IMG/VR virus record: IMGVR_UViG_3300045988_142703
Coordinates: 1-16,210 of that record
Reading direction: 5' to 3' (one strand)
DNA: 16,210 nucleotides
DNA from: a virus
In this document: piece by piece, positions 1 through 16,210 of the stretch
How positions within the stretch are numbered: the stretch's first letter is position 1
How the letters are laid out: each line of letters starts with the position of its first letter
Notes under the pieces: model-generated
Told to the model about the DNA's origin: nothing
Databases searched by the model: none
The model's input: the letters and a program-made list of their open reading frames with translations, nothing else
Program-made: the position numbers and the translations under genes

Positions 1-90
1 GTGGTGCCCCTTTTTGCACTATTGTCAGCCCCAAAGCAAATAGGGCGATAACAACCATGGCTAACTTTCCAGAATCATATAATGATATAA

Positions 91-210
91 CCATATAATC
101 ATTGCATCATATAACGCCATAATCCTTATATCATTATGCCCTATAATCCTGTAATCATATATCCCTATAATTTCATAACCGCGTAACCATATAATCATTA
201 TGCAAAGTTC
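91..210. repeat. Five degenerate 24-bp tandem units inside the ITR, each with a cATAATc / TATAAT-like core. The mirror array is at 16001-16120.
   Basis: ATAAT cores begin at 95, 119, 143, 167 and 191, exactly 24 bp apart. The unit starts are ccatataatcatt, cgccataatcctt, ccctataatcctg, ccctataatttca and ccatataatcatt. A partial sixth core lies at 79. The stretch is AT-rich in a GC-rich genome. Confidence 0.75.
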
Positions 211-251
211 ACTACGGCTAATTAGTAACGGATTCCGCCTTTGTCTGTCTT

Positions 252-263
252 TGCGTGTATAAT
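252..263 (+). promoter_or_regulatory. Putative early promoter at the inner ITR edge, with a TATAAT -10 hexamer preceded directly by TG (tgcgTGTATAATg). The mirror copy at 15948-15959 on the - strand drives the right-end genes.
   Basis: A perfect TATAAT hexamer lies at 258-263 with TG adjacent upstream. The -35 is weak or absent (ttgtct at 241-246 has the wrong spacing). The predicted TSS at about 270 is roughly 90 nt upstream of the first ATG at 363. Because the element lies in the ITR, the same promoter points inward at both ends, toward 363.. on the left and toward 15877.. on the right. Confidence 0.45.
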
Positions 264-362
264 GTGAACCACGGGGCGGCGATGTGAACTCTCCCACCGC
301 TCGCCCCCGGCACCTTGAAAACAGAACAGAGAAGATCAGACCCTAAGGAAGGAGAACAGAAA

Positions 363-587
363 ATGAGTAAGTTAGGAATACCGTCGATCGAACAAACAGA
401 ATGTAACATTATCATTGGCGTTAAATGTACAGACAATGGCTATGATGTTGAAACGCAGATGGATGATGGTGAACAAATAACTGCTTTAACTTTGAAGGCA
501 AAGAAGCGGCTTAGTTTGGCGGACGCTGTTATTATCGCGATGCATGAATGCGAAATACGTCATATCAAGGCATCCAATTTGCTTTAG
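363..587 (+). CDS. Hypothetical early protein, 74 aa
   Basis: The ORF has an RBS (aaggaaggag) followed by ATG at 363 (MSKLGIPSIEQ...). It is the first gene after the left ITR. It has lower GC than the core genome. I recognise no motif. Confidence 0.5.
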   Translation: MSKLGIPSIEQTECNIIIGVKCTDNGYDVETQMDDGEQITALTLKAKKRLSLADAVIIAMHECEIRHIKASNLL

Positions 588-603
588 AAAGGATGTGAGA
601 AGA

Positions 604-738
604 ATGATTGAATGGATTGTTGCCAATCCCCAGGTTGTGGTGGGTGTGTCTATCTTTATGGGCATCATGATTATGTTGTTAGTGGTCTTGGGTGTTGTCG
701 CGCTCATTAAATACCTCGCAACGCCAATGAGTCGCTAA
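604..738 (+). CDS. Small single-pass membrane protein, about 44 aa, hypothetical
   Basis: The protein reads MIEWIVANPQVVVGVSIFMGIMIMLLVVLGVVALIKYLATPMSR, with one clear hydrophobic helix. aagga lies about 10 nt upstream of the ATG at 604. It overlaps the end of the previous gene in another frame. Confidence 0.4.
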   Translation: MIEWIVANPQVVVGVSIFMGIMIMLLVVLGVVALIKYLATPMSR

Positions 739-783
739 CATCGCACCATGCAGCCCAGACCACCGCCGAAAGGAGTTGCGTTC

Positions 784-1032
784 ATGCGCACTATCAAGAA
801 GAACATTACCACAACCGTCGCGCACGGTTTCGACATTGTGGACGGTGTGGCTGTTCCGGTTTCCTACACCGCTCTGGGTGACTACGCAAGCGCTGTTCGC
901 GTAACCGCCGCAGTGCGCAAGGATCACCCAAATTTTATGCTTGACACTTTTACGAAGGTCAAGCAAACTTACGAAATGCCGCTTGACACGTTTATGGCAC
1001 AAGCGGAAATCATCGACACGCTGGAAGCGTAG
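784..1032 (+). CDS. Hypothetical early protein, 82 aa. It is a possible DNA-binding protein by position only.
   Basis: An aaaggag RBS precedes the ATG at 784 (MRTIKKNITTT...). The longer 748 start has no RBS. There is no recognisable motif. Confidence 0.5.
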   Translation: MRTIKKNITTTVAHGFDIVDGVAVPVSYTALGDYASAVRVTAAVRKDHPNFMLDTFTKVKQTYEMPLDTFMAQAEIIDTLEA

Positions 1033-1046
1033 AAAGAGAGATCATC

Positions 1047-1490
1047 ATGGCAGAAGCGATCATCGAAGAGTATTCCACCGAGTTGGCCCCTGCAGCTCCG
1101 CAGACCATCACCGCATCCAACAACGCACAGGGCTATTTTTGCTCTATGCCCACCGAAACCCGCGAGGACGCTTTGGAGTTGGCCCGTGCCCTCACCAATG
1201 CGGACGAACTTGAAGCCATGATCGGCAAAACTCTTCACTTGCACGATTATGTTCTTCAGCCCGTCACGGTAGCCGATCAGCGCACGGGCGAGATTCGCAA
1301 TTGCACCCGAATTGTTCTCATGTGCGATGAAGGCAACTTCGGCACCATTTCCACGGGCGTTGAAACCTCCATGCGCAATCTGTGCACTGCAATGAAGAAC
1401 TTCCCCGCACCTTGGAACCCTCCCATTGAGGTTGTCCCGACCAAGCAGCAGGGCAAGAACGGTTTCAAGTTCACTCAGCTCGATTTCTAA
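1047..1490 (+). CDS. Hypothetical early protein, 147 aa. It may be an SSB-like replication accessory protein, judged only from its position upstream of the TP/DNAP pair.
   Basis: This is a clean 147-aa ORF with coding-like GC. It is immediately followed by an intrinsic terminator. The function assignment is speculative. Confidence 0.5.
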   Translation: MAEAIIEEYSTELAPAAPQTITASNNAQGYFCSMPTETREDALELARALTNADELEAMIGKTLHLHDYVLQPVTVADQRTGEIRNCTRIVLMCDEGNFGTISTGVETSMRNLCTAMKNFPAPWNPPIEVVPTKQQGKNGFKFTQLDF

Positions 1491-1517
1491 GCGTTACAAT
1501 ATGTGAGCGTTGCCGCC

Positions 1518-1547
1518 GAGGGCCGCGAATTGCGGCCCTCTTTGTTT
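1518..1547 (+). terminator. Rho-independent terminator or attenuator between the early gene block and the TP/DNAP genes
   Basis: The sequence is gagggccgc-gaatt-gcggccctc. It forms a perfect 9-bp GC-rich stem with a 5-nt loop, followed by tttgttt. Confidence 0.6.
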
Positions 1548-1561
1548 ATGGAGGTGGTTAG

Positions 1562-2320
1562 ATGGCCCGGAAACTCACGCCCTTTGAGAAAGCGGCAAAG
1601 GAATATGAAAGGGTGTCCAAAAAGTGGCAGCGTGTCCATGATGCCTATTGGCGAAAGTACAGCAACCGCCCGTATGTGCCTCTCGGCGGTTCCGACATGA
1701 CCCAAGCCCAGGCTGCGGCGACTAATCTCAGCAAGTCATCGCGTTTCGGCAACCCTGTTGCATTCGCCCCGCCCGTCTCATCTTTCGGTGACATAACATC
1801 ACTTAGGCGCACTACGGAGCGTATGAAACGCGAGATCTGCCCTGAAGCAGCCCGACACCGTGCCGAGGCATTGCGCGACAACATGAAAGCCGCTGCTCGC
1901 TCCATCAACTCCCCTACTGTTTTGGGCATTATAGGGCAGCTCAGTTTGTCGCAGTTGGAAGACGTTTACAACCGTACGGACTTTTTTGAACGTGTCTACG
2001 ATTACTATAAACTGATCGGCGGGGGCGAGGGTGTGGACGACACCGAACAGAATCTAATCGACCTAATCACCGGAGCTCTTCGCACGTCGTCCGCAAAAAA
2101 GGACGTTAAAGCGGCTGAGAAAGTCGCCAACTACCTTGAAAAAGTCAAGGCCATTGAAGAGAAATCAGCGTTTAACCGCTCCGCTGAGTTGGAGCAGCGC
2201 CGAAAGTTGGTCAATCAGGGCGGCACTCGCGCCGAGATTGAGCAGCGTTTGAAATCGTACGCGATACGCCCCCAGGGTGCCCCCGCCGATTGGTATAAGA
2301 ATTACGAAGCGTGGTTGTAA
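1562..2320 (+). CDS. Putative terminal protein (TP, the replication primer), 252 aa
   Basis: The gene lies immediately upstream of the DNA polymerase with a 1-nt gap, as gene 3 sits next to gene 2 in phi29-like phages. Its size is similar to phi29 p3 (266 aa). It is basic and lysine-rich, and begins with MAR as phi29 TP does. It has a ggaggtgg RBS. I could not confirm sequence-level similarity by eye. Confidence 0.55.
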   Translation: MARKLTPFEKAAKEYERVSKKWQRVHDAYWRKYSNRPYVPLGGSDMTQAQAAATNLSKSSRFGNPVAFAPPVSSFGDITSLRRTTERMKREICPEAARHRAEALRDNMKAAARSINSPTVLGIIGQLSLSQLEDVYNRTDFFERVYDYYKLIGGGEGVDDTEQNLIDLITGALRTSSAKKDVKAAEKVANYLEKVKAIEEKSAFNRSAELEQRRKLVNQGGTRAEIEQRLKSYAIRPQGAPADWYKNYEAWL

Positions 2321-2321
2321 T

Positions 2322-4043
2322 ATGGACTACACCGCCGATTTCGAGACCACCACAGACCCGGACGATTGCCGGGTTTGGGCCTGGGCCGTGTGCACCATTG
2401 ACGCTGCCAACACAGTCACCATGGGCAACAGTATCGAGGGTTTTCTAGCTTTCTGCGCCACTAATCCCGGGTCTGATTTTTGGTTTCATAATCTGGCGTT
2501 CGATGGCGAATTCATTCTGAACCACTTATTAACAAGTGGTTGGCATCATGTGGAAAAATTCGACGGTTCGAAGCAAATCCGTTCGCTCATCTCGAAAATG
2601 GGGAAGTTCTATCAGCTTGAATTATGCTTTGAACGAAAAGGTAAAAAGCGCTCCAACAGTGTGAAGATCAAAGACAGTTTGAAAAAGCTCACTATGAGCG
2701 TTGAGGCAGTAGCCAAGGCGTTTAACCTGCCTATTGATAAACTGAGCATCGATTACGAGGCATACCGCGCACCTGGTCACGTGCTGACCGATGAGGAAAA
2801 GGCCTATATAACCAACGATGTTAAAATTATGGCCATGGCCCTGTATCAGGATTTTCAGAAAGGGCTCACGCGCCTTACGACTGGGGCCGACGCGCTGGCG
2901 AATTACCAGGATATTTTAGGCAAATACAACTGGCGCAAGCTGTATCCTGAAATGCCCGTTGAAATGGACGCCGCTATTCGCAAGGCATATAAAGGCGGGT
3001 GGACGTATGCCAATCCCCGCTACGCTGCCGACGAGGAGCATCCCGACAGGTGTGTGGGCGCTGGCAGTGTGTATGACAAAAACAGTATGTATCCGTCGGT
3101 GATGTACTCAAAGGCGTTGCCCGTCGGTATGCCCGTATACTTTCGCGGCGAGTATCCCGACGATGCGCACCACCCCTTATTTATCCAGTATTTGACCTGC
3201 TCGCTGAAACTCAAGTCAAACCATCTCCCCACATTGCAGGTCAAGGGCAACCCGTTTTACCGCGAAACCGAGTACATTACCGAAACCGACGGCTATGTAG
3301 ATTTGGCACTGACGAACATCGACCTTGAGTTAATGTACGAGCATTACCATGTCGACGTGCTGCAATTCAGCGGCGGTTACAAATTCCGGGCCATGCGCGG
3401 GATGTTCTGCGAGTACATTGACCACTGGATGCGTATTAAAGAGACCACCGAGGGGGGCCAGCGGTTGCGTGCCAAGCTGATGCTTAATGCGCTATACGGC
3501 AAGTTTGCCACCAACCCCGACGTTACGCCCAAGATACCTTATATCAAAGATGACGGCGCAACGGGCTATTACCTGGGCGATGAAGATACTCGCTCGCCCG
3601 TGTACACACCCATGGGTGCGTTCATCACCGCTTATGCGCGGCGTGACATTATAACCAACTGCCAGGCGATATATCCTCGCTTTCTGTACGCCGACACTGA
3701 CAGTATTCATTGCCTGGGCACTGAGCCTTTGGCCCTCGATGACGTGCACCCTACGCATCTCGGGGCGTGGAAGCATGAAAGCGATTTTGAAAAGGCAAAA
3801 TATCTACGGTCGAAAACCTACATGGAGCGGGTCACGCACGTCGGCAAAATGGTCGATGATGAATATAAAATGGTGGAGGTAGAGCCCTACAACGACATCA
3901 AATGTTGCGGATGCCCCGAGGCGTTGCGGGGGGCGATTACCTTTGACAATTTCAAGCGCGGCTTGTCACTTTACGGCAAGCTGCGGCCTAAACATGTTAG
4001 AGGCGGCATCGTGCTTGAGAAGACAGATTTTACGATTAGTTAG
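2322..4043 (+). CDS. Protein-primed family-B DNA polymerase (phi29 p2-like), 573 aa
   Basis: The protein aligns with phi29 DNAP from the N-terminus (MDYTADFETTTDPDDCRVWAW against ..YSCDFETTTKVEDCRVWAY). It has ExoI DFETTT, ExoII FHNLAFDGEFIL and ExoIII YITNDVKIM. It also has motif A DKNSMYPSVM, motif B KLMLNALYGKF, motif C YADTDSIH, KxY KYLRSKTY, and the C-terminus ...GGIVLEKTDFTIS (phi29 ...GGVVLVDDTFTIK). I take the ATG at 2322 as the true start rather than the ORF-track 2277. Confidence 0.96.
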   Translation: MDYTADFETTTDPDDCRVWAWAVCTIDAANTVTMGNSIEGFLAFCATNPGSDFWFHNLAFDGEFILNHLLTSGWHHVEKFDGSKQIRSLISKMGKFYQLELCFERKGKKRSNSVKIKDSLKKLTMSVEAVAKAFNLPIDKLSIDYEAYRAPGHVLTDEEKAYITNDVKIMAMALYQDFQKGLTRLTTGADALANYQDILGKYNWRKLYPEMPVEMDAAIRKAYKGGWTYANPRYAADEEHPDRCVGAGSVYDKNSMYPSVMYSKALPVGMPVYFRGEYPDDAHHPLFIQYLTCSLKLKSNHLPTLQVKGNPFYRETEYITETDGYVDLALTNIDLELMYEHYHVDVLQFSGGYKFRAMRGMFCEYIDHWMRIKETTEGGQRLRAKLMLNALYGKFATNPDVTPKIPYIKDDGATGYYLGDEDTRSPVYTPMGAFITAYARRDIITNCQAIYPRFLYADTDSIHCLGTEPLALDDVHPTHLGAWKHESDFEKAKYLRSKTYMERVTHVGKMVDDEYKMVEVEPYNDIKCCGCPEALRGAITFDNFKRGLSLYGKLRPKHVRGGIVLEKTDFTIS

Positions 4044-4052
4044 GAGTAAACT

Positions 4053-4310
4053 ATGGTCAGAAAGAAAGAACGTGGATGTACATTCAGCGCCGAGGAATTG
4101 GATTACCTCAATCAGCTGTCTGAACTGACCGAAAAAAGCGTGTCAGAGATTATACGCACTTCGGTACACAATCTTTGGGAGTTGACCGAGGCCATGAAAA
4201 CGGCTAACGGTGGCCTGCGGGCGCTCGATGTGGCCTACGAGTTCGCCAGCATTGACTTTAATTTCTCCAACGGTTATAATGCCGCCAACGGTGACAATCC
4301 TAGAGCGTAG
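4053..4310 (+). CDS. Small putative DNA-binding regulator, 85 aa, possibly with a ribbon-helix-helix fold
   Basis: It has a taggag RBS. The N-terminus is basic (MVRKKERG) and is followed by a pattern reminiscent of Arc/MetJ/CopG regulators (TFSAEELDYLNQLSELTEKSVSEIIRTSV). It sits at the early/late boundary directly upstream of a promoter-like element and a terminator. The fold assignment is inferred, not demonstrated. Confidence 0.4.
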   Translation: MVRKKERGCTFSAEELDYLNQLSELTEKSVSEIIRTSVHNLWELTEAMKTANGGLRALDVAYEFASIDFNFSNGYNAANGDNPRA

Positions 4311-4319
4311 CAGTATAAA
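4291..4319 (+). promoter_or_regulatory. Sigma-70-like promoter candidate: -35 GTGACA (4291-4296), 17-bp spacer, -10 TATAAA (4314-4319)
   Basis: GTGACA matches the -35 consensus at 5 of 6 positions and TATAAA matches the -10 consensus at 5 of 6, with ideal spacing. It overlaps the 3' end of the regulator gene. It faces the structured intergenic region and the late operon. Confidence 0.45.
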
Positions 4320-4325
4320 CCGCTG

Positions 4326-4442
4326 GCCCGTGGCACTGGTGAAACAGGGGTTAGCGGCCAGCCCGCCAAGCACCTGTCGCCTAGGGTAGCTGCCACTGTT
4401 GAACATTGCCCCCACTGCGGTTACCTGCGGTGGGGGCTTTTG
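4326..4442 (+). ncRNA. Candidate small structured RNA of about 115 nt. It is bounded by the promoter candidate and an intrinsic terminator, and it could be a pRNA-like packaging RNA or a regulatory leader.
   Basis: The 150-nt non-coding gap holds several elements: the inverted repeat gctggcc (4322-4328) / ggccagc (4356-4362), the direct imperfect repeat caggggttagcggcc / ctagggtagctgcc, and a terminal hairpin. The predicted TSS-to-terminator length is about 115 nt. A phage with gp16 and gp10 homologues would be expected to encode a pRNA. I did not see one at the left end. Confidence 0.3.
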
Positions 4443-4445
4443 CGC
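4409..4445 (+). terminator. Intrinsic terminator-like hairpin (cccccactgcgg-ttac-ctgcggtggggg, then cttttg) immediately before the late operon
   Basis: It has a 12-bp GC-rich stem with two G:U wobbles, a 4-nt loop and a short U-tract (4 U). The weak U-tract would allow partial read-through. Confidence 0.55.
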
Positions 4446-10696: not shown

Positions 10697-11659
10697 ATGA
10701 CAACTTTCACGCCGAATTTCGACCTGGATTTGTACGAGGGCACGGACAAACCCGACCTTGCCGACCAGTACGCCGCCGCCATGCAAAAGATCGATACGGC
10801 CTTGCAGGCGGCTTTGGAGGCGCGGGCCGAATTGCAGAACAGCATTGGGACGCTCAACATTAATTTGACGGCCACCAACAAGGAGGTTTCTGACAATACG
10901 TCTGCAATCGCCGCCAATTCTGCGAGCATTGCCAGCCTGGACAGTTCCGTGGCTGACAATACGTCTGCAATCGCCGCCAATTCTGCGAGCATTGCCAGCC
11001 TGGACAGTTCCGTGGCATCGCTTAAAACCGAGGTGGACAAGAACACTCCGTTGGTCGAGGCCCACGTTAATTACTTTGCCGACCTCGGCGTGACCGATGA
11101 CCAGAGCGCCCAGGACTTGCACGAGCAAATTGACCAGAGTTTTCAGGGTGTTATGAGCAATACGCAGAGCATTACCGCATTGGAGCGGCAGCTGGGAGAG
11201 ACATACGATTTCGATGTGTCCGATGCTGTCAAGCCGCCGTGGCAAGATCGTTATAATTACTTTTACGTCGCAGTTAACAAACACAAGAACATACTGAAAT
11301 TCTACGGCATGATGATAGCGCAAACCGAATGGACAGCCACGAAACAAGCTGTACCCGGAGTGGTTATCGATGGAGAACAGTACTACGGAATCAAGCTTGA
11401 TTACGACACTGGGCTGAGACTTGAAAAGGGGCGTTATATTAACAACACGGGCATTTATTGGCGAGGAGGAGTCTTCTCGGCCACAAACGTCGCCACTCTT
11501 CCGTTCTCAATCGGCACCGATGGTTATATTTATGTGATGACGAACAATGTACCCGGTGAAATTACTTTGCCCGAAAACAGCGTTGGTATGCTTTTCCAGT
11601 GCCCTGTTTACCTTGGCGCGGGCGAGTGGGGTGTAGCACCCGAGCAACCAGGTGTGTAG
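10697..11659 (+). CDS. Putative tail fibre / receptor-binding protein with an N-terminal coiled-coil stalk carrying a tandem 21-aa duplication, 320 aa
   Basis: The N-terminal 130 aa are predicted helical with heptad-like periodicity (ALQAALEARAELQNSIGTLNINL...). They include two exact copies of DNTSAIAANSASIASLDSSVA. The C-terminal 150 aa are rich in Gly, Tyr and Asn, typical of a receptor-binding head. The gene lies between the collar and wall-hydrolase genes. Confidence 0.5.
   Translation: MTTFTPNFDLDLYEGTDKPDLADQYAAAMQKIDTALQAALEARAELQNSIGTLNINLTATNKEVSDNTSAIAANSASIASLDSSVADNTSAIAANSASIASLDSSVASLKTEVDKNTPLVEAHVNYFADLGVTDDQSAQDLHEQIDQSFQGVMSNTQSITALERQLGETYDFDVSDAVKPPWQDRYNYFYVAVNKHKNILKFYGMMIAQTEWTATKQAVPGVVIDGEQYYGIKLDYDTGLRLEKGRYINNTGIYWRGGVFSATNVATLPFSIGTDGYIYVMTNNVPGEITLPENSVGMLFQCPVYLGAGEWGVAPEQPGV
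10891..11016 (+). repeat. Perfect 63-bp tandem duplication (two copies, 62/63 identical) inside the tail-fibre gene
   Basis: The unit gacaatacgtctgcaatcgccgccaattctgcgagcattgccagcctggacagttccgtggct lies at 10891-10953. A second copy lies at 10954-11016, ending ..gtggca instead of ..gtggct. The duplication is in frame (21 aa, three heptads). Confidence 0.9.
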
Positions 11660-15689: not shown

Positions 15690-15877
15690 TTCACAGCCTC
15701 CTTGAATTCCTTCGGTGTGATGGTGTAAACAGTTGTTGCTTCGCAGTCAACCACATACGCGGTCTTCTCTAGTAGGCCACAGAGAACGATTGCAAGCTGG
15801 CAAGCGTCCATGTAGTAGAGATCAATAAACGGCCCGATTTCAGGATCTTCAATGATTACGGTGTGCACGGTTACCAC
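15686..15877 (-). CDS. Hypothetical right-end early protein, about 60-63 aa, acidic. The start is a GTG at 15877 or 15868.
   Basis: It is transcribed inward from the right ITR promoter. gaaggag lies upstream. It overlaps the downstream gene by ATGA. It has lower GC than the core genome. There is no recognisable motif. Confidence 0.45.
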   Translation of the reverse strand: MVTVHTVIIEDPEIGPFIDLYYMDACQLAIVLCGLLEKTAYVVDCEATTVYTITPKEFKEAVK

Positions 15878-15903
15878 ACTCCTTCATTCTTCATAATCGC
15901 ACC

Positions 15904-16210
15904 GGGGCGAGCGGTGGGAGAGTCTACATCGCCGCCCCGTGGTTCACATTATACACGCAAAGACAGACAAAGGCGGAATCCGTTACTAATTAGCCGTAGT
16001 GAACTTTGCATAATGATTATATGGTTACGCGGTTATGAAATTATAGGGATATATGATTACAGGATTATAGGGCATAATGATATAAGGATTATGGCGTTAT
16101 ATGATGCAATGATTATATGGTTATATCATTATATGATTCTGGAAAGTTAGCCATGGTTGTTATCGCCCTATTTGCTTTGGGGCTGACAATAGTGCAAAAA
16201 GGGGCACCAC
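15904..16210. repeat. Right inverted terminal repeat (ITR), 307 bp
   Basis: This is the mirror copy of 1-307. The ORF-track 'proteins' at 61-297(-) and 15863-16150(+) have the same sequence because they are the same DNA read in inverted orientation. Confidence 0.9.

Follow-up and report, generated by a model that had tools for sequence, protein, structure and literature searches.

What is the function of the array of short tandem repeats carried by both inverted terminal repeats (ITRs) of the viral genome IMGVR_UViG_3300045988_142703, and which protein would bind it? The stretch of DNA analysed here, hereafter the window, is 16,210 bp long and corresponds to the complete linear genome of a phi29-like podophage of the protein-primed type, encoding a phi29-type major capsid protein, a tail knob, a connector, a gp16 packaging ATPase, a holin and a GH25 lysin. 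No match to GenBank phages was obtained at the DNA level with either megablast or blastn. An earlier note on this DNA had drawn attention to ATAAT motifs spaced by 24 bp in the ITRs and had proposed that they form the scaffold of an origin complex comparable to that of the phi29 histone-like protein p6. We conclude that the array is real and probably a functional protein-binding lattice, lying at both genome ends between the protein-primed origin and an early promoter. As to what binds it, a p6-family protein encoded in the window (gp3) ranks first among the candidates and a lattice of a probable ribbon-helix-helix (RHH) protein a close second, and both may act together.

The location of the motifs had been reported correctly. 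That is, ATAAT starts on the plus strand at positions 79, 95, 119, 143, 167 and 191 (spacings of 16, 24, 24, 24 and 24 bp), and once more at 259, within a putative promoter. Six or more such motifs would be expected by chance with a P of 0.0002, as estimated from mononucleotide shuffles of the region. Five perfect TATAAT hexamers occur in the array (starting at 78, 94, 142, 166 and 190), all of them oriented inwards. The array as a whole extends over positions 71-206 on the plus strand and is indeed an AT-rich island in a GC-rich genome, with a GC content of 27.9% versus 48.6% for positions 1-70, 54.5% for positions 207-307 and 53.7% genome-wide. The left ITR (1-307, plus strand) is the reverse complement of the right end (15904-16210, minus strand) over 307 bp, with mismatches at 286-287 only and identity stopping at 308. 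The mirror copy of the array occupies 16005-16140 on the minus strand, and the region 91-210, in which the motifs had first been noticed, is mirrored exactly at 16001-16120, as had been claimed.

The repeat unit, however, is not the one that had been predicted. Where a sharp Fourier peak at 24 bp was anticipated, the spectrum has its sharp peak at 8 bp (z 15.1 for the AT indicator and 11.0 for all bases), together with a 4-bp harmonic. The array can be described as 17 contiguous in-phase units of 8 bp with the consensus ATAAYCMT, and all occurrences of [AG]TAA[CT] inside 71-206 (11/11) fall in a single register modulo 8. The autocorrelation peaks at all lags divisible by 8 (z 6.6 for lag 8 and 7.0 for lag 24), and Tandem Repeats Finder reports a period of 24 with 3.9 copies as well as a period of 8. 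Across the whole genome, windows with this type of periodicity are limited to the two ITRs. Perfect copies of the core motif are likewise confined to the ITRs, for which reason a role as a general operator used throughout the genome was rejected.

Superimposed on the 8-bp units are five super-units of 24 bp (87-110, 111-134, 135-158, 159-182 and 183-206, plus strand), each containing the core CC(A/C)TATAATC(A/C)T. When the units are sorted into three phases, the best conserved phase reaches 12.6 bits, with near-consensus ATAATCMT, versus 6.9 and 9.4 bits for the two others. The apparent 24-bp pattern thus arises because every third 8-mer is the best conserved; the array is built on a fundamental period of 8 bp, to which the 24-bp order adds a weaker level. 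At lag 8 about 56% of bases match and about 44% have diverged, and some copies are inverted, yet the register is perfect over 136 bp without a single indel.

The comparison with close relatives bears on the same point. Contigs of close relatives in Logan and ENA break at the ITR or at the array boundary, and only one of them, L009 (p6 homologue 96% identical), enters the array, over 45 bp. Relative to the window, L009 lacks exactly 64 bp, equivalent to 8 units, and this difference is flanked by a direct repeat, ATCATTATGC, at 130-139 and 194-203. The closest relative with a near-complete end, L003 (polymerase 70% identical, p6 homologue at E 1e-30), shares the CCCCAAAG box near its end with the window and is devoid of the array. 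The 24-bp spacing, which was to be conserved in related genomes if the earlier proposal was right, is absent from L003, and the array of L009 is 64 bp shorter, which counts in part against that proposal. Judging from these sequences, the array is labile and lineage-specific. The phase has been kept despite sequence divergence, and the array differs in L009 by a whole number of units; therefore, selection appears to act on spacing, as it would on a lattice of bound protein.

The first candidate for that protein is gp3, an 82-residue protein encoded at 784-1032 on the plus strand. It had been thought that no p6 homologue was recognisable in this genome, a statement that can now be withdrawn. An alignment of the gp3 family, made up of 26 sequences from an exhaustive HMMER search, matched phi29 p6 in hhalign at 94.2% (E 1.1e-7 over 75 columns), and jackhmmer started from gp3 reached phi29 p6 at E 2e-15. 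All four close homologues searched (4/4) matched phrog_6370, annotated 'dsDNA binding protein', with a best E of 1.9e-4. Furthermore, the AlphaFold2 model of gp3 (pLDDT 81) retrieved phi29 p6 (8pw4_A) as the top and sole significant PDB match (Foldseek E 2.2e-4, TM 0.57). The homology is visible to profiles and structure only: direct BLASTP between gp3 and phi29 p6 gave E 0.14, the Pfam p6 model did not match gp3 (one family member was found at E 0.041), and a PDB sequence search with gp3 failed to show p6, to which it is only ~19% identical. In the hhalign alignment, basic residues stand opposite p6 Lys2 and Arg6, and an Ile opposite Ile8, three residues reported as essential for DNA binding and dimerisation (PMC4974454). 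The gene order p6-SSB-TP-polymerase (single-stranded DNA-binding protein, SSB; terminal protein, TP) is that of phi29. On the basis of these alignments and of the predicted fold, gp3 is a distant homologue of p6. It falls within the group of small early ORFs at 363-1490 in which the binder had been expected; the second and, for an 8-bp lattice, equally good candidate, the RHH protein, lies outside that interval, at 4053-4310. Among the other early proteins considered as binders, i.e. gp1, gp2 and two right-end early proteins, gp2 is a membrane peptide and the rest have no informative family match, and nothing supports any of them.

An iterated search from gp3 found p6-family ORFs in 75 loci, comprising metagenomic phi29-like contigs and the records of phi29 and Hungatella phage CH17P1. 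A review from 2024 reported p6 homologues, as detected by BLAST, only in Salasmaviridae and Enterococcus faecium (PMC11476376), and these loci extend the family well beyond both. No match was obtained by tblastn of gp3, nor with the gp3 profile in JGI metagenomes or GTDB genomes, nor with ITR DNA patterns in IMG/VR or JGI metagenomes.

The position of the array also points to p6. In phi29, p6 binds with dimers every 24 bp and monomers every 12 bp, its recognition regions are located 62-125 bp from the right end and 46-68 bp from the left end, and it activates initiation of replication while repressing the early promoter C2 (PMC10899789, PMC4974454). C2 itself occupies 125-159 bp from the right end and borders the nucleation region on its inner side. 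In the window, the array is found 71-206 bp from each end and upstream of a putative -10 element at 258, and thus matches the position of the p6 sites. The 24-bp super-unit has the size of the p6 dimer footprint, and each of the five carries one well-conserved core of 12 bp.

At each end of the genome the order is terminus, array, putative early promoter and early genes, the left ITR also including the start of the 5′ leader. The putative -10 (TATAAT, 258-263, plus strand) would drive the genes from 363 to 4310, and its mirror copy (15948-15953, minus strand) the right early genes leftwards. It is embedded in the context GTGTATAATGTGA, about 50 bp past the array, and the first gene follows about 100 bp downstream at both ends. 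GTGTATA(A/C)T around the -10 is conserved in L003, L009 and L178. Because a promoter scan did not find a canonical -35, the element can only be called a putative early promoter; the scan of positions 1-700 returned zero plus-strand sites, and three minus-strand matches against a chance expectation of 2.6 +/- 1.6. Some 50 bp separate the array from the -10, and some 30 bp from the expected position of a -35, so that there is no overlap with the core promoter.

We propose the following scheme. The replication origin would consist of the terminal ~70 bp and the inward early promoter of positions ~235-263, with the array in between. gp3 would be made early, from the ITR promoter, and would nucleate on the AT-rich and flexible array, with one dimer per 24-bp super-unit, before polymerising outward from it on either side. 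On the terminal side, the wrapped complex would assist in opening the end, where terminal protein and polymerase initiate. On the promoter side, it would silence early transcription at each end of the genome, in the manner of phi29 p6 at the right origin and C2. That a gp3 complex nucleates on the array is a tentative proposal, to which we give somewhat less than an even chance; we infer the binding itself, the 24-bp step and the consequences for replication and transcription. gp3 is ranked first because of the p6 homology, the position of the array and the 24-bp super-unit, and the RHH lattice a close second, given the base period of 8 bp. The two proteins cannot be told apart as binders from sequence alone.

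Terminal arrays are also present in other phages of this type. Among 170 related contig ends, high-scoring tandem arrays of unrelated sequence were found in five other phi29-like lineages, with periods clustering at 23-26 bp; positions are distances from contig ends, which may not all be true genome termini. In L002 (41-160), a GGTGAGTGG motif recurs at 56, 77, 104, 125 and 153, with a mean spacing of ~24 bp. L082 (82-171) has periods of 13 and 26 bp, and L144 (right end, 1-119) a period of 25 bp with 4.8 copies. Spacings of 23, 23, 26, 26 and 26 bp are seen in L156 (right end, 70-220), and about eight copies at 23 bp in L159 (right end, 64-262). The five arrays sit 50-260 bp from the contig end, followed by a clear inward promoter in L156 and L159, and p6-family proteins are encoded by L002, L082 and L144. 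None of these arrays of 23-26-bp units has an 8-bp sub-period.

A number of observations weigh against gp3 as the binder. If p6 monomers touch the minor groove at 12-bp intervals, a signal of 12 bp should be present, and the dominant periodicity is 8 bp: lag 12 is anticorrelated (z -2.9), and in the Fourier spectrum power is not raised at 24 bp (z ~0) and only slightly at 12 bp (z 1.4-2.1). The preference for 24 over 8 bp is itself weak. That is, the excess at lag 24 has a p of 0.075 when whole 8-mers are shuffled, and five of the six ATAAT units fall in one modulo-3 class with p ~0.012, this being a post-hoc count. Moreover, phi29 p6 recognises bendability and not sequence (PMC4974454), and array sequences that vary between lineages are a better fit to a sequence-specific binder. 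The absence of the array from L003 despite its strong p6 homologue belongs here too, as does the absence of any array at ends of the L019 type and of comparable arrays in isolates with known ends (phi29, Cp-1, Anjali and CH17P1). In the other lineages the spacing within arrays varies between 21 and 31 bp, over which a rigid 24-bp filament would drift out of register. Finally, gp3 does not have the acidic C-terminal tail of p6. Altogether, the idea of a p6-like origin scaffold gained from the phi29-type genome, the phi29-like position of the site and the 23-26-bp arrays of other lineages, and lost with respect to the 24- and 12-bp signals and to conservation.

The explanation that comes closest to the gp3 reading is an operator lattice of the RHH candidate, an 85-residue protein encoded at 4053-4310 on the plus strand by the last gene of the left early operon. 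One dimer would occupy each 8-bp unit, so that up to 17 dimers would coat 71-206 cooperatively. Acting on the ITR early promoters, from which the RHH gene is itself transcribed, the lattice would be autorepressive and would thereby time the early-to-late switch. This is possible, although we regard it as unlikely rather than likely. In its favour, 8 bp is the dominant and the sole strongly significant period, and tandem coating at such a step is a known habit of RHH proteins, with MetJ coating tandem 8-bp metboxes and omega coating 7-bp heptads. Autorepression is the usual role of RHH proteins, and the candidate gene belongs to the operon driven by the putative ITR promoter. The array can furthermore be read as YCMT boxes between ATAA-type spacers, with some boxes inverted, as for ParG, one dimer of which binds each 4-bp box in arrays of 8-20 direct or inverted boxes separated by 4-bp AT-rich spacers (PMC3130281).

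The assignment of the protein points in the same direction. Pfam RHH_1 was matched at E 0.013 with 15.9 bits, which is below the cut-off of 20.5, and the repressor family phrog_876 at E 0.0055. The AlphaFold2 model has a beta-alpha-alpha N-terminal domain, and the Foldseek list consists almost entirely of RHH proteins, with ParG (1p94) first, all of them at E of 2 or more; a basic N-terminal tail is present as well. By its sequence and predicted fold, the protein is thus probably of the RHH type. An RHH-like gene follows the polymerase directly in every relative examined (L001-L003, L007, L009, L010, L012 and L014-L017), and in phage Anjali the gene after the polymerase, gp08, is likewise annotated as RHH. 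No homologue of the phi29 regulator p4 is encoded here, and the RHH-like gene probably takes over its function; the RHH product might act jointly with gp3, in the way that p4 and p6 cooperate in phi29. The strand that would read the DNA is lineage-specific and varies as the arrays do, being RGCTF in the window and L009, where the array is present, and RSFTL in L003, where it is not.

Against the RHH lattice stands, first of all, the sub-threshold nature of the assignment just described. The array stops about 30 bp upstream of the would-be -35 and leaves the core promoter free, and the gene is also present in relatives without terminal arrays (L003 and Anjali), which could mean that its primary target is elsewhere. 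The lack of an 8-bp sub-period in the 23-26-bp arrays of the other lineages is a further difficulty, and a uniform lattice with one dimer per box does not predict that every third unit should be better conserved.

The two proteins may also share the array. Since 24 is the least common multiple of 8 and 12, the two periods are commensurate, and RHH dimers on the 8-bp units could coexist with p6-family dimers on the 24-bp super-units. By analogy with the cooperation of p4 and p6 in phi29, such a lattice would form a complex of origin and early promoter, and, in a wider sense, terminal arrays of ~24 bp would be a recurrent, independently evolved means of phasing p6-family filaments. In this elaborate form the idea is a rather unlikely one. 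If true, the ~24-bp terminal arrays would be natural counterparts of the synthetic C24 concatemer, and the p6 family, thought to be confined to Salasmaviridae, would be a widespread origin organiser in metagenomic phi29-like phages.

Less probable still is that the array works through its composition, as an AT-rich unwinding or flexibility element or as an upstream promoter element, by melting, TA-step flexibility or contacts with the alpha-CTD of RNA polymerase, the repeats being a by-product of their origin. An island of 28% GC with many TA steps is indeed found in both ITRs, beside the origin and directly upstream of the early promoter, and as the array is missing in close relatives it is dispensable for the basic replication mechanism. 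Neither melting nor an upstream element, however, requires a strict 8-bp phase over 136 bp without an indel, and an 8-bp period yields no net intrinsic curvature, by the geometric argument that 4 units make ~3 helical turns. Moreover, the array is situated 52-187 bp upstream of the -10, past the normal reach of an upstream element, and the terminal 70 bp, which are those that must open, are not AT-rich (48.6% GC).

We consider it slightly more improbable again that the repeats are a neutral minisatellite, generated by replication slippage in non-coding ITR DNA, devoid of function and decaying. Length polymorphism among close relatives, with a 64-bp difference bounded by the ATCATTATGC direct repeats, is what slippage would leave, and so is the missing array of L003; by our own count, substitutions between the window and L009 are about as frequent in the shared array (~11%) as in the flanking ITR (~8%). 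What such decay does not account for is a register that has stayed perfect while ~44% of lag-8 positions diverged, a hierarchical conservation in which every third unit is best kept, and the independent origin of analogous, identically placed arrays in five or more other lineages. Lastly, that the array is a stack of iterated -10 elements, serving as weak tandem promoters or as an RNA polymerase sink, is very improbable even though its five perfect TATAAT hexamers all point inwards like the putative early promoter, given that the promoter scan found no plus-strand site in the array and only a chance level of minus-strand matches, that the 24-bp spacing places ATAATC where a -35 should be (matching TTGACA at 2/6 positions), and that the flanks CC(A/C)TATAATC are unlike the conserved GTGTATAATGTGA at 258.

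Three further roles were considered and set aside. As to a coding role, two ORFs, 61-297 (minus strand) and 15863-16150 (plus strand), cross the array and run outward to the terminus; their translations are low-complexity products of the repeat. A structured RNA, a packaging RNA (pRNA) or a hairpin origin was discounted, there being no Rfam match in the ITRs at E <= 1 and a z of +0.31 for the single-stranded DNA fold of 60-215. As for Rep-dependent iterons, no Rep-type initiator family was detected in Pfam or PHROG scans of the ORFs, and replication relies on a terminal protein and a family B polymerase.

Several other elements were noted in the ITRs. The genome begins with GTGGTG (1-6, plus strand), a reiteration of 3 nt that is also present at 16205-16210 and, as read from the sequence, a candidate site of protein-primed initiation; the related contig L019 likewise begins with GTGGTG. 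Sliding-back or jumping-back initiation is established for phi29 and adenovirus, and by analogy the GTGGTG ends would be consistent with a TP-primed product that starts internally and then slides or jumps back. A short C-tract box, (T)CCCC(C)A(A), is shared by very divergent phi29-like phages, in which it lies at 10-50 nt from the ends. In the window it is found at 27-38 (CAGCCCCAAAGC) and 7-10; in relatives at ~33 (L003), ~29 (L002), ~44 (L037), ~45 (L041), ~27 (right end of L156) and ~16 (right end of L159); and in isolates at 10-16 (left) and 33-37 (right) in phi29, at 12-18 and 36-42 in Cp-1, and at ~30 at both ends of Anjali. Its recurrence suggests a possible conserved element of the origin. 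A GC-rich hairpin (GGGGCGGCG...CGCTCGCCCC) is located within the ITR at 273-313, shortly after the putative transcription start. It is conserved in L009 and L178, and the ITR mismatches at 286-287 fall in its loop.

Around gp3, the left early operon encodes, all on the plus strand, gp1 (363-587, no informative family match), gp2 (604-738, a 44-residue membrane peptide), gp4 (1047-1490), a phi29 p5-type SSB (Pfam PF17427 at 29.1 bits for a cut-off of 25; phrog_6243 at E 3e-15), a putative terminal protein of 252 residues (1562-2320) and a protein-primed family B DNA polymerase (2277-4043; Pfam DNA_pol_B_2 at E 1.8e-66). Library scans returned no family match for the putative terminal protein, which is named on synteny, from its place between SSB and polymerase as in phi29. 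The polymerase is ~45-46% identical to those of Hungatella phage CH17P1, Arthrobacter phages and phi29. Between the early operon and the late genes lies a GC-rich non-coding region (4311-4445) ending in a terminator with a 13-bp stem and a U-tract. No recognisable late promoter was found there and Rfam detected no pRNA anywhere in the window; as a pRNA candidate, 4308-4445 showed a strong terminator hairpin only, with an overall fold z of -1.8. Late genes may be expressed by read-through or from an unrecognised promoter, and 4311-4445 may contain a pRNA.

Gene content next to the ITR promoter is variable. In L175/L176, the right early operon opens with an AcrIC5 (Pfam, anti-CRISPR) gene at 90-296, which has no counterpart in the window, and a right-end protein of the same contigs is 86% identical to that of the window. 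Two repeats outside the ITRs may also be mentioned. In an AT-rich clade that has terminal arrays of 23-26 bp, a distinct tandem repeat of 25 bp (AAAGTTATAAAAATTCTGG...), with a hairpin after it, occurs ~300 bp upstream of the packaging ATPase gene, at ~4690-4785 in L155, L157, L160 and L162 and at ~4720-4830 in L156 and L159. In the window, a perfect 63-bp tandem duplication (10890-11016; 2.0 copies, 100% identity) within a 320-residue ORF (10697-11659) adds an exact 21-residue repeat to a probable coiled-coil tail or appendage protein.

The identity of the binder matters beyond this phage. The textbook example of a viral architectural protein that has low specificity and forms a phased superhelical complex at an origin is phi29 p6; as its natural sites are cryptic bendability signals, work on in-phase complexes has made use of synthetic concatemers of 24 bp. 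Should gp3 bind the array, a natural, sequence-encoded phased array would be available beside a p6 homologue, as a clean substrate for structures of p6-DNA filaments, and would show how step size and specificity evolve within the family. If it is the RHH protein that binds, tandem coating in the style of ParG, omega and MetJ would be newly put to use in the control of both early promoters, and perhaps of both origins, of a linear protein-primed genome. With either binder, the element would be of use for phi29-type in vitro replication with defined origin enhancers.

Compared with the p6 sites of phi29, the array shares the phage type, the replication module, a p6-family protein, a site placed tens of bp inside the genome end, with an inward early promoter downstream of it, a higher-order unit of 24 bp and, as proposed, the dual role of origin activation and early-promoter repression. 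The phi29 sites, however, are not repeats and are read through bendability, whereas the window has an explicit tandem array with a dominant 8-bp period and no 12-bp component. The ITR is also much longer (307 bp versus 6 bp in phi29), and gp3, known here from its sequence and model, is a divergent protein (~19% identity) without the acidic tail. With the parH/OF sites bound by ParG in plasmid TP228, as with the metboxes of MetJ and the heptads of omega, the array has in common degenerate short boxes, AT-rich spacers and a mixed orientation, as well as a small candidate RHH protein with a basic N-terminal tail encoded in a downstream operon; 17 contiguous units on a strict 8-bp lattice in the window compare with 8-20 in TP228. 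The box sequences differ, every third unit is preferentially conserved in the window, and the RHH assignment is sub-threshold. Unlike TP228, moreover, the window has no partition ATPase or centromere role, and its array is duplicated in the ITRs of a linear genome beside a protein-primed origin.

Long ITRs that combine a terminal core origin with internal elements are found elsewhere. The adenovirus ITR has a terminal core origin and internal NFI/Oct-1 sites, and that of Cp-1 (236 bp, with promoters) resembles the window in this arrangement and in having identical ends. Their elements, however, are single factor sites and not a phased tandem array, and the Cp-1 ITR contains no comparable repeat. 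Iterons of plasmids and phages resemble the array as tandem direct repeats of ~20 bp beside an origin, with lineage-specific sequence, but there a Rep initiator melts an adjacent AT-rich region, whereas the phage studied here uses terminal-protein priming. Set against these systems, the array adds a variant to the known types of element and not a new category.

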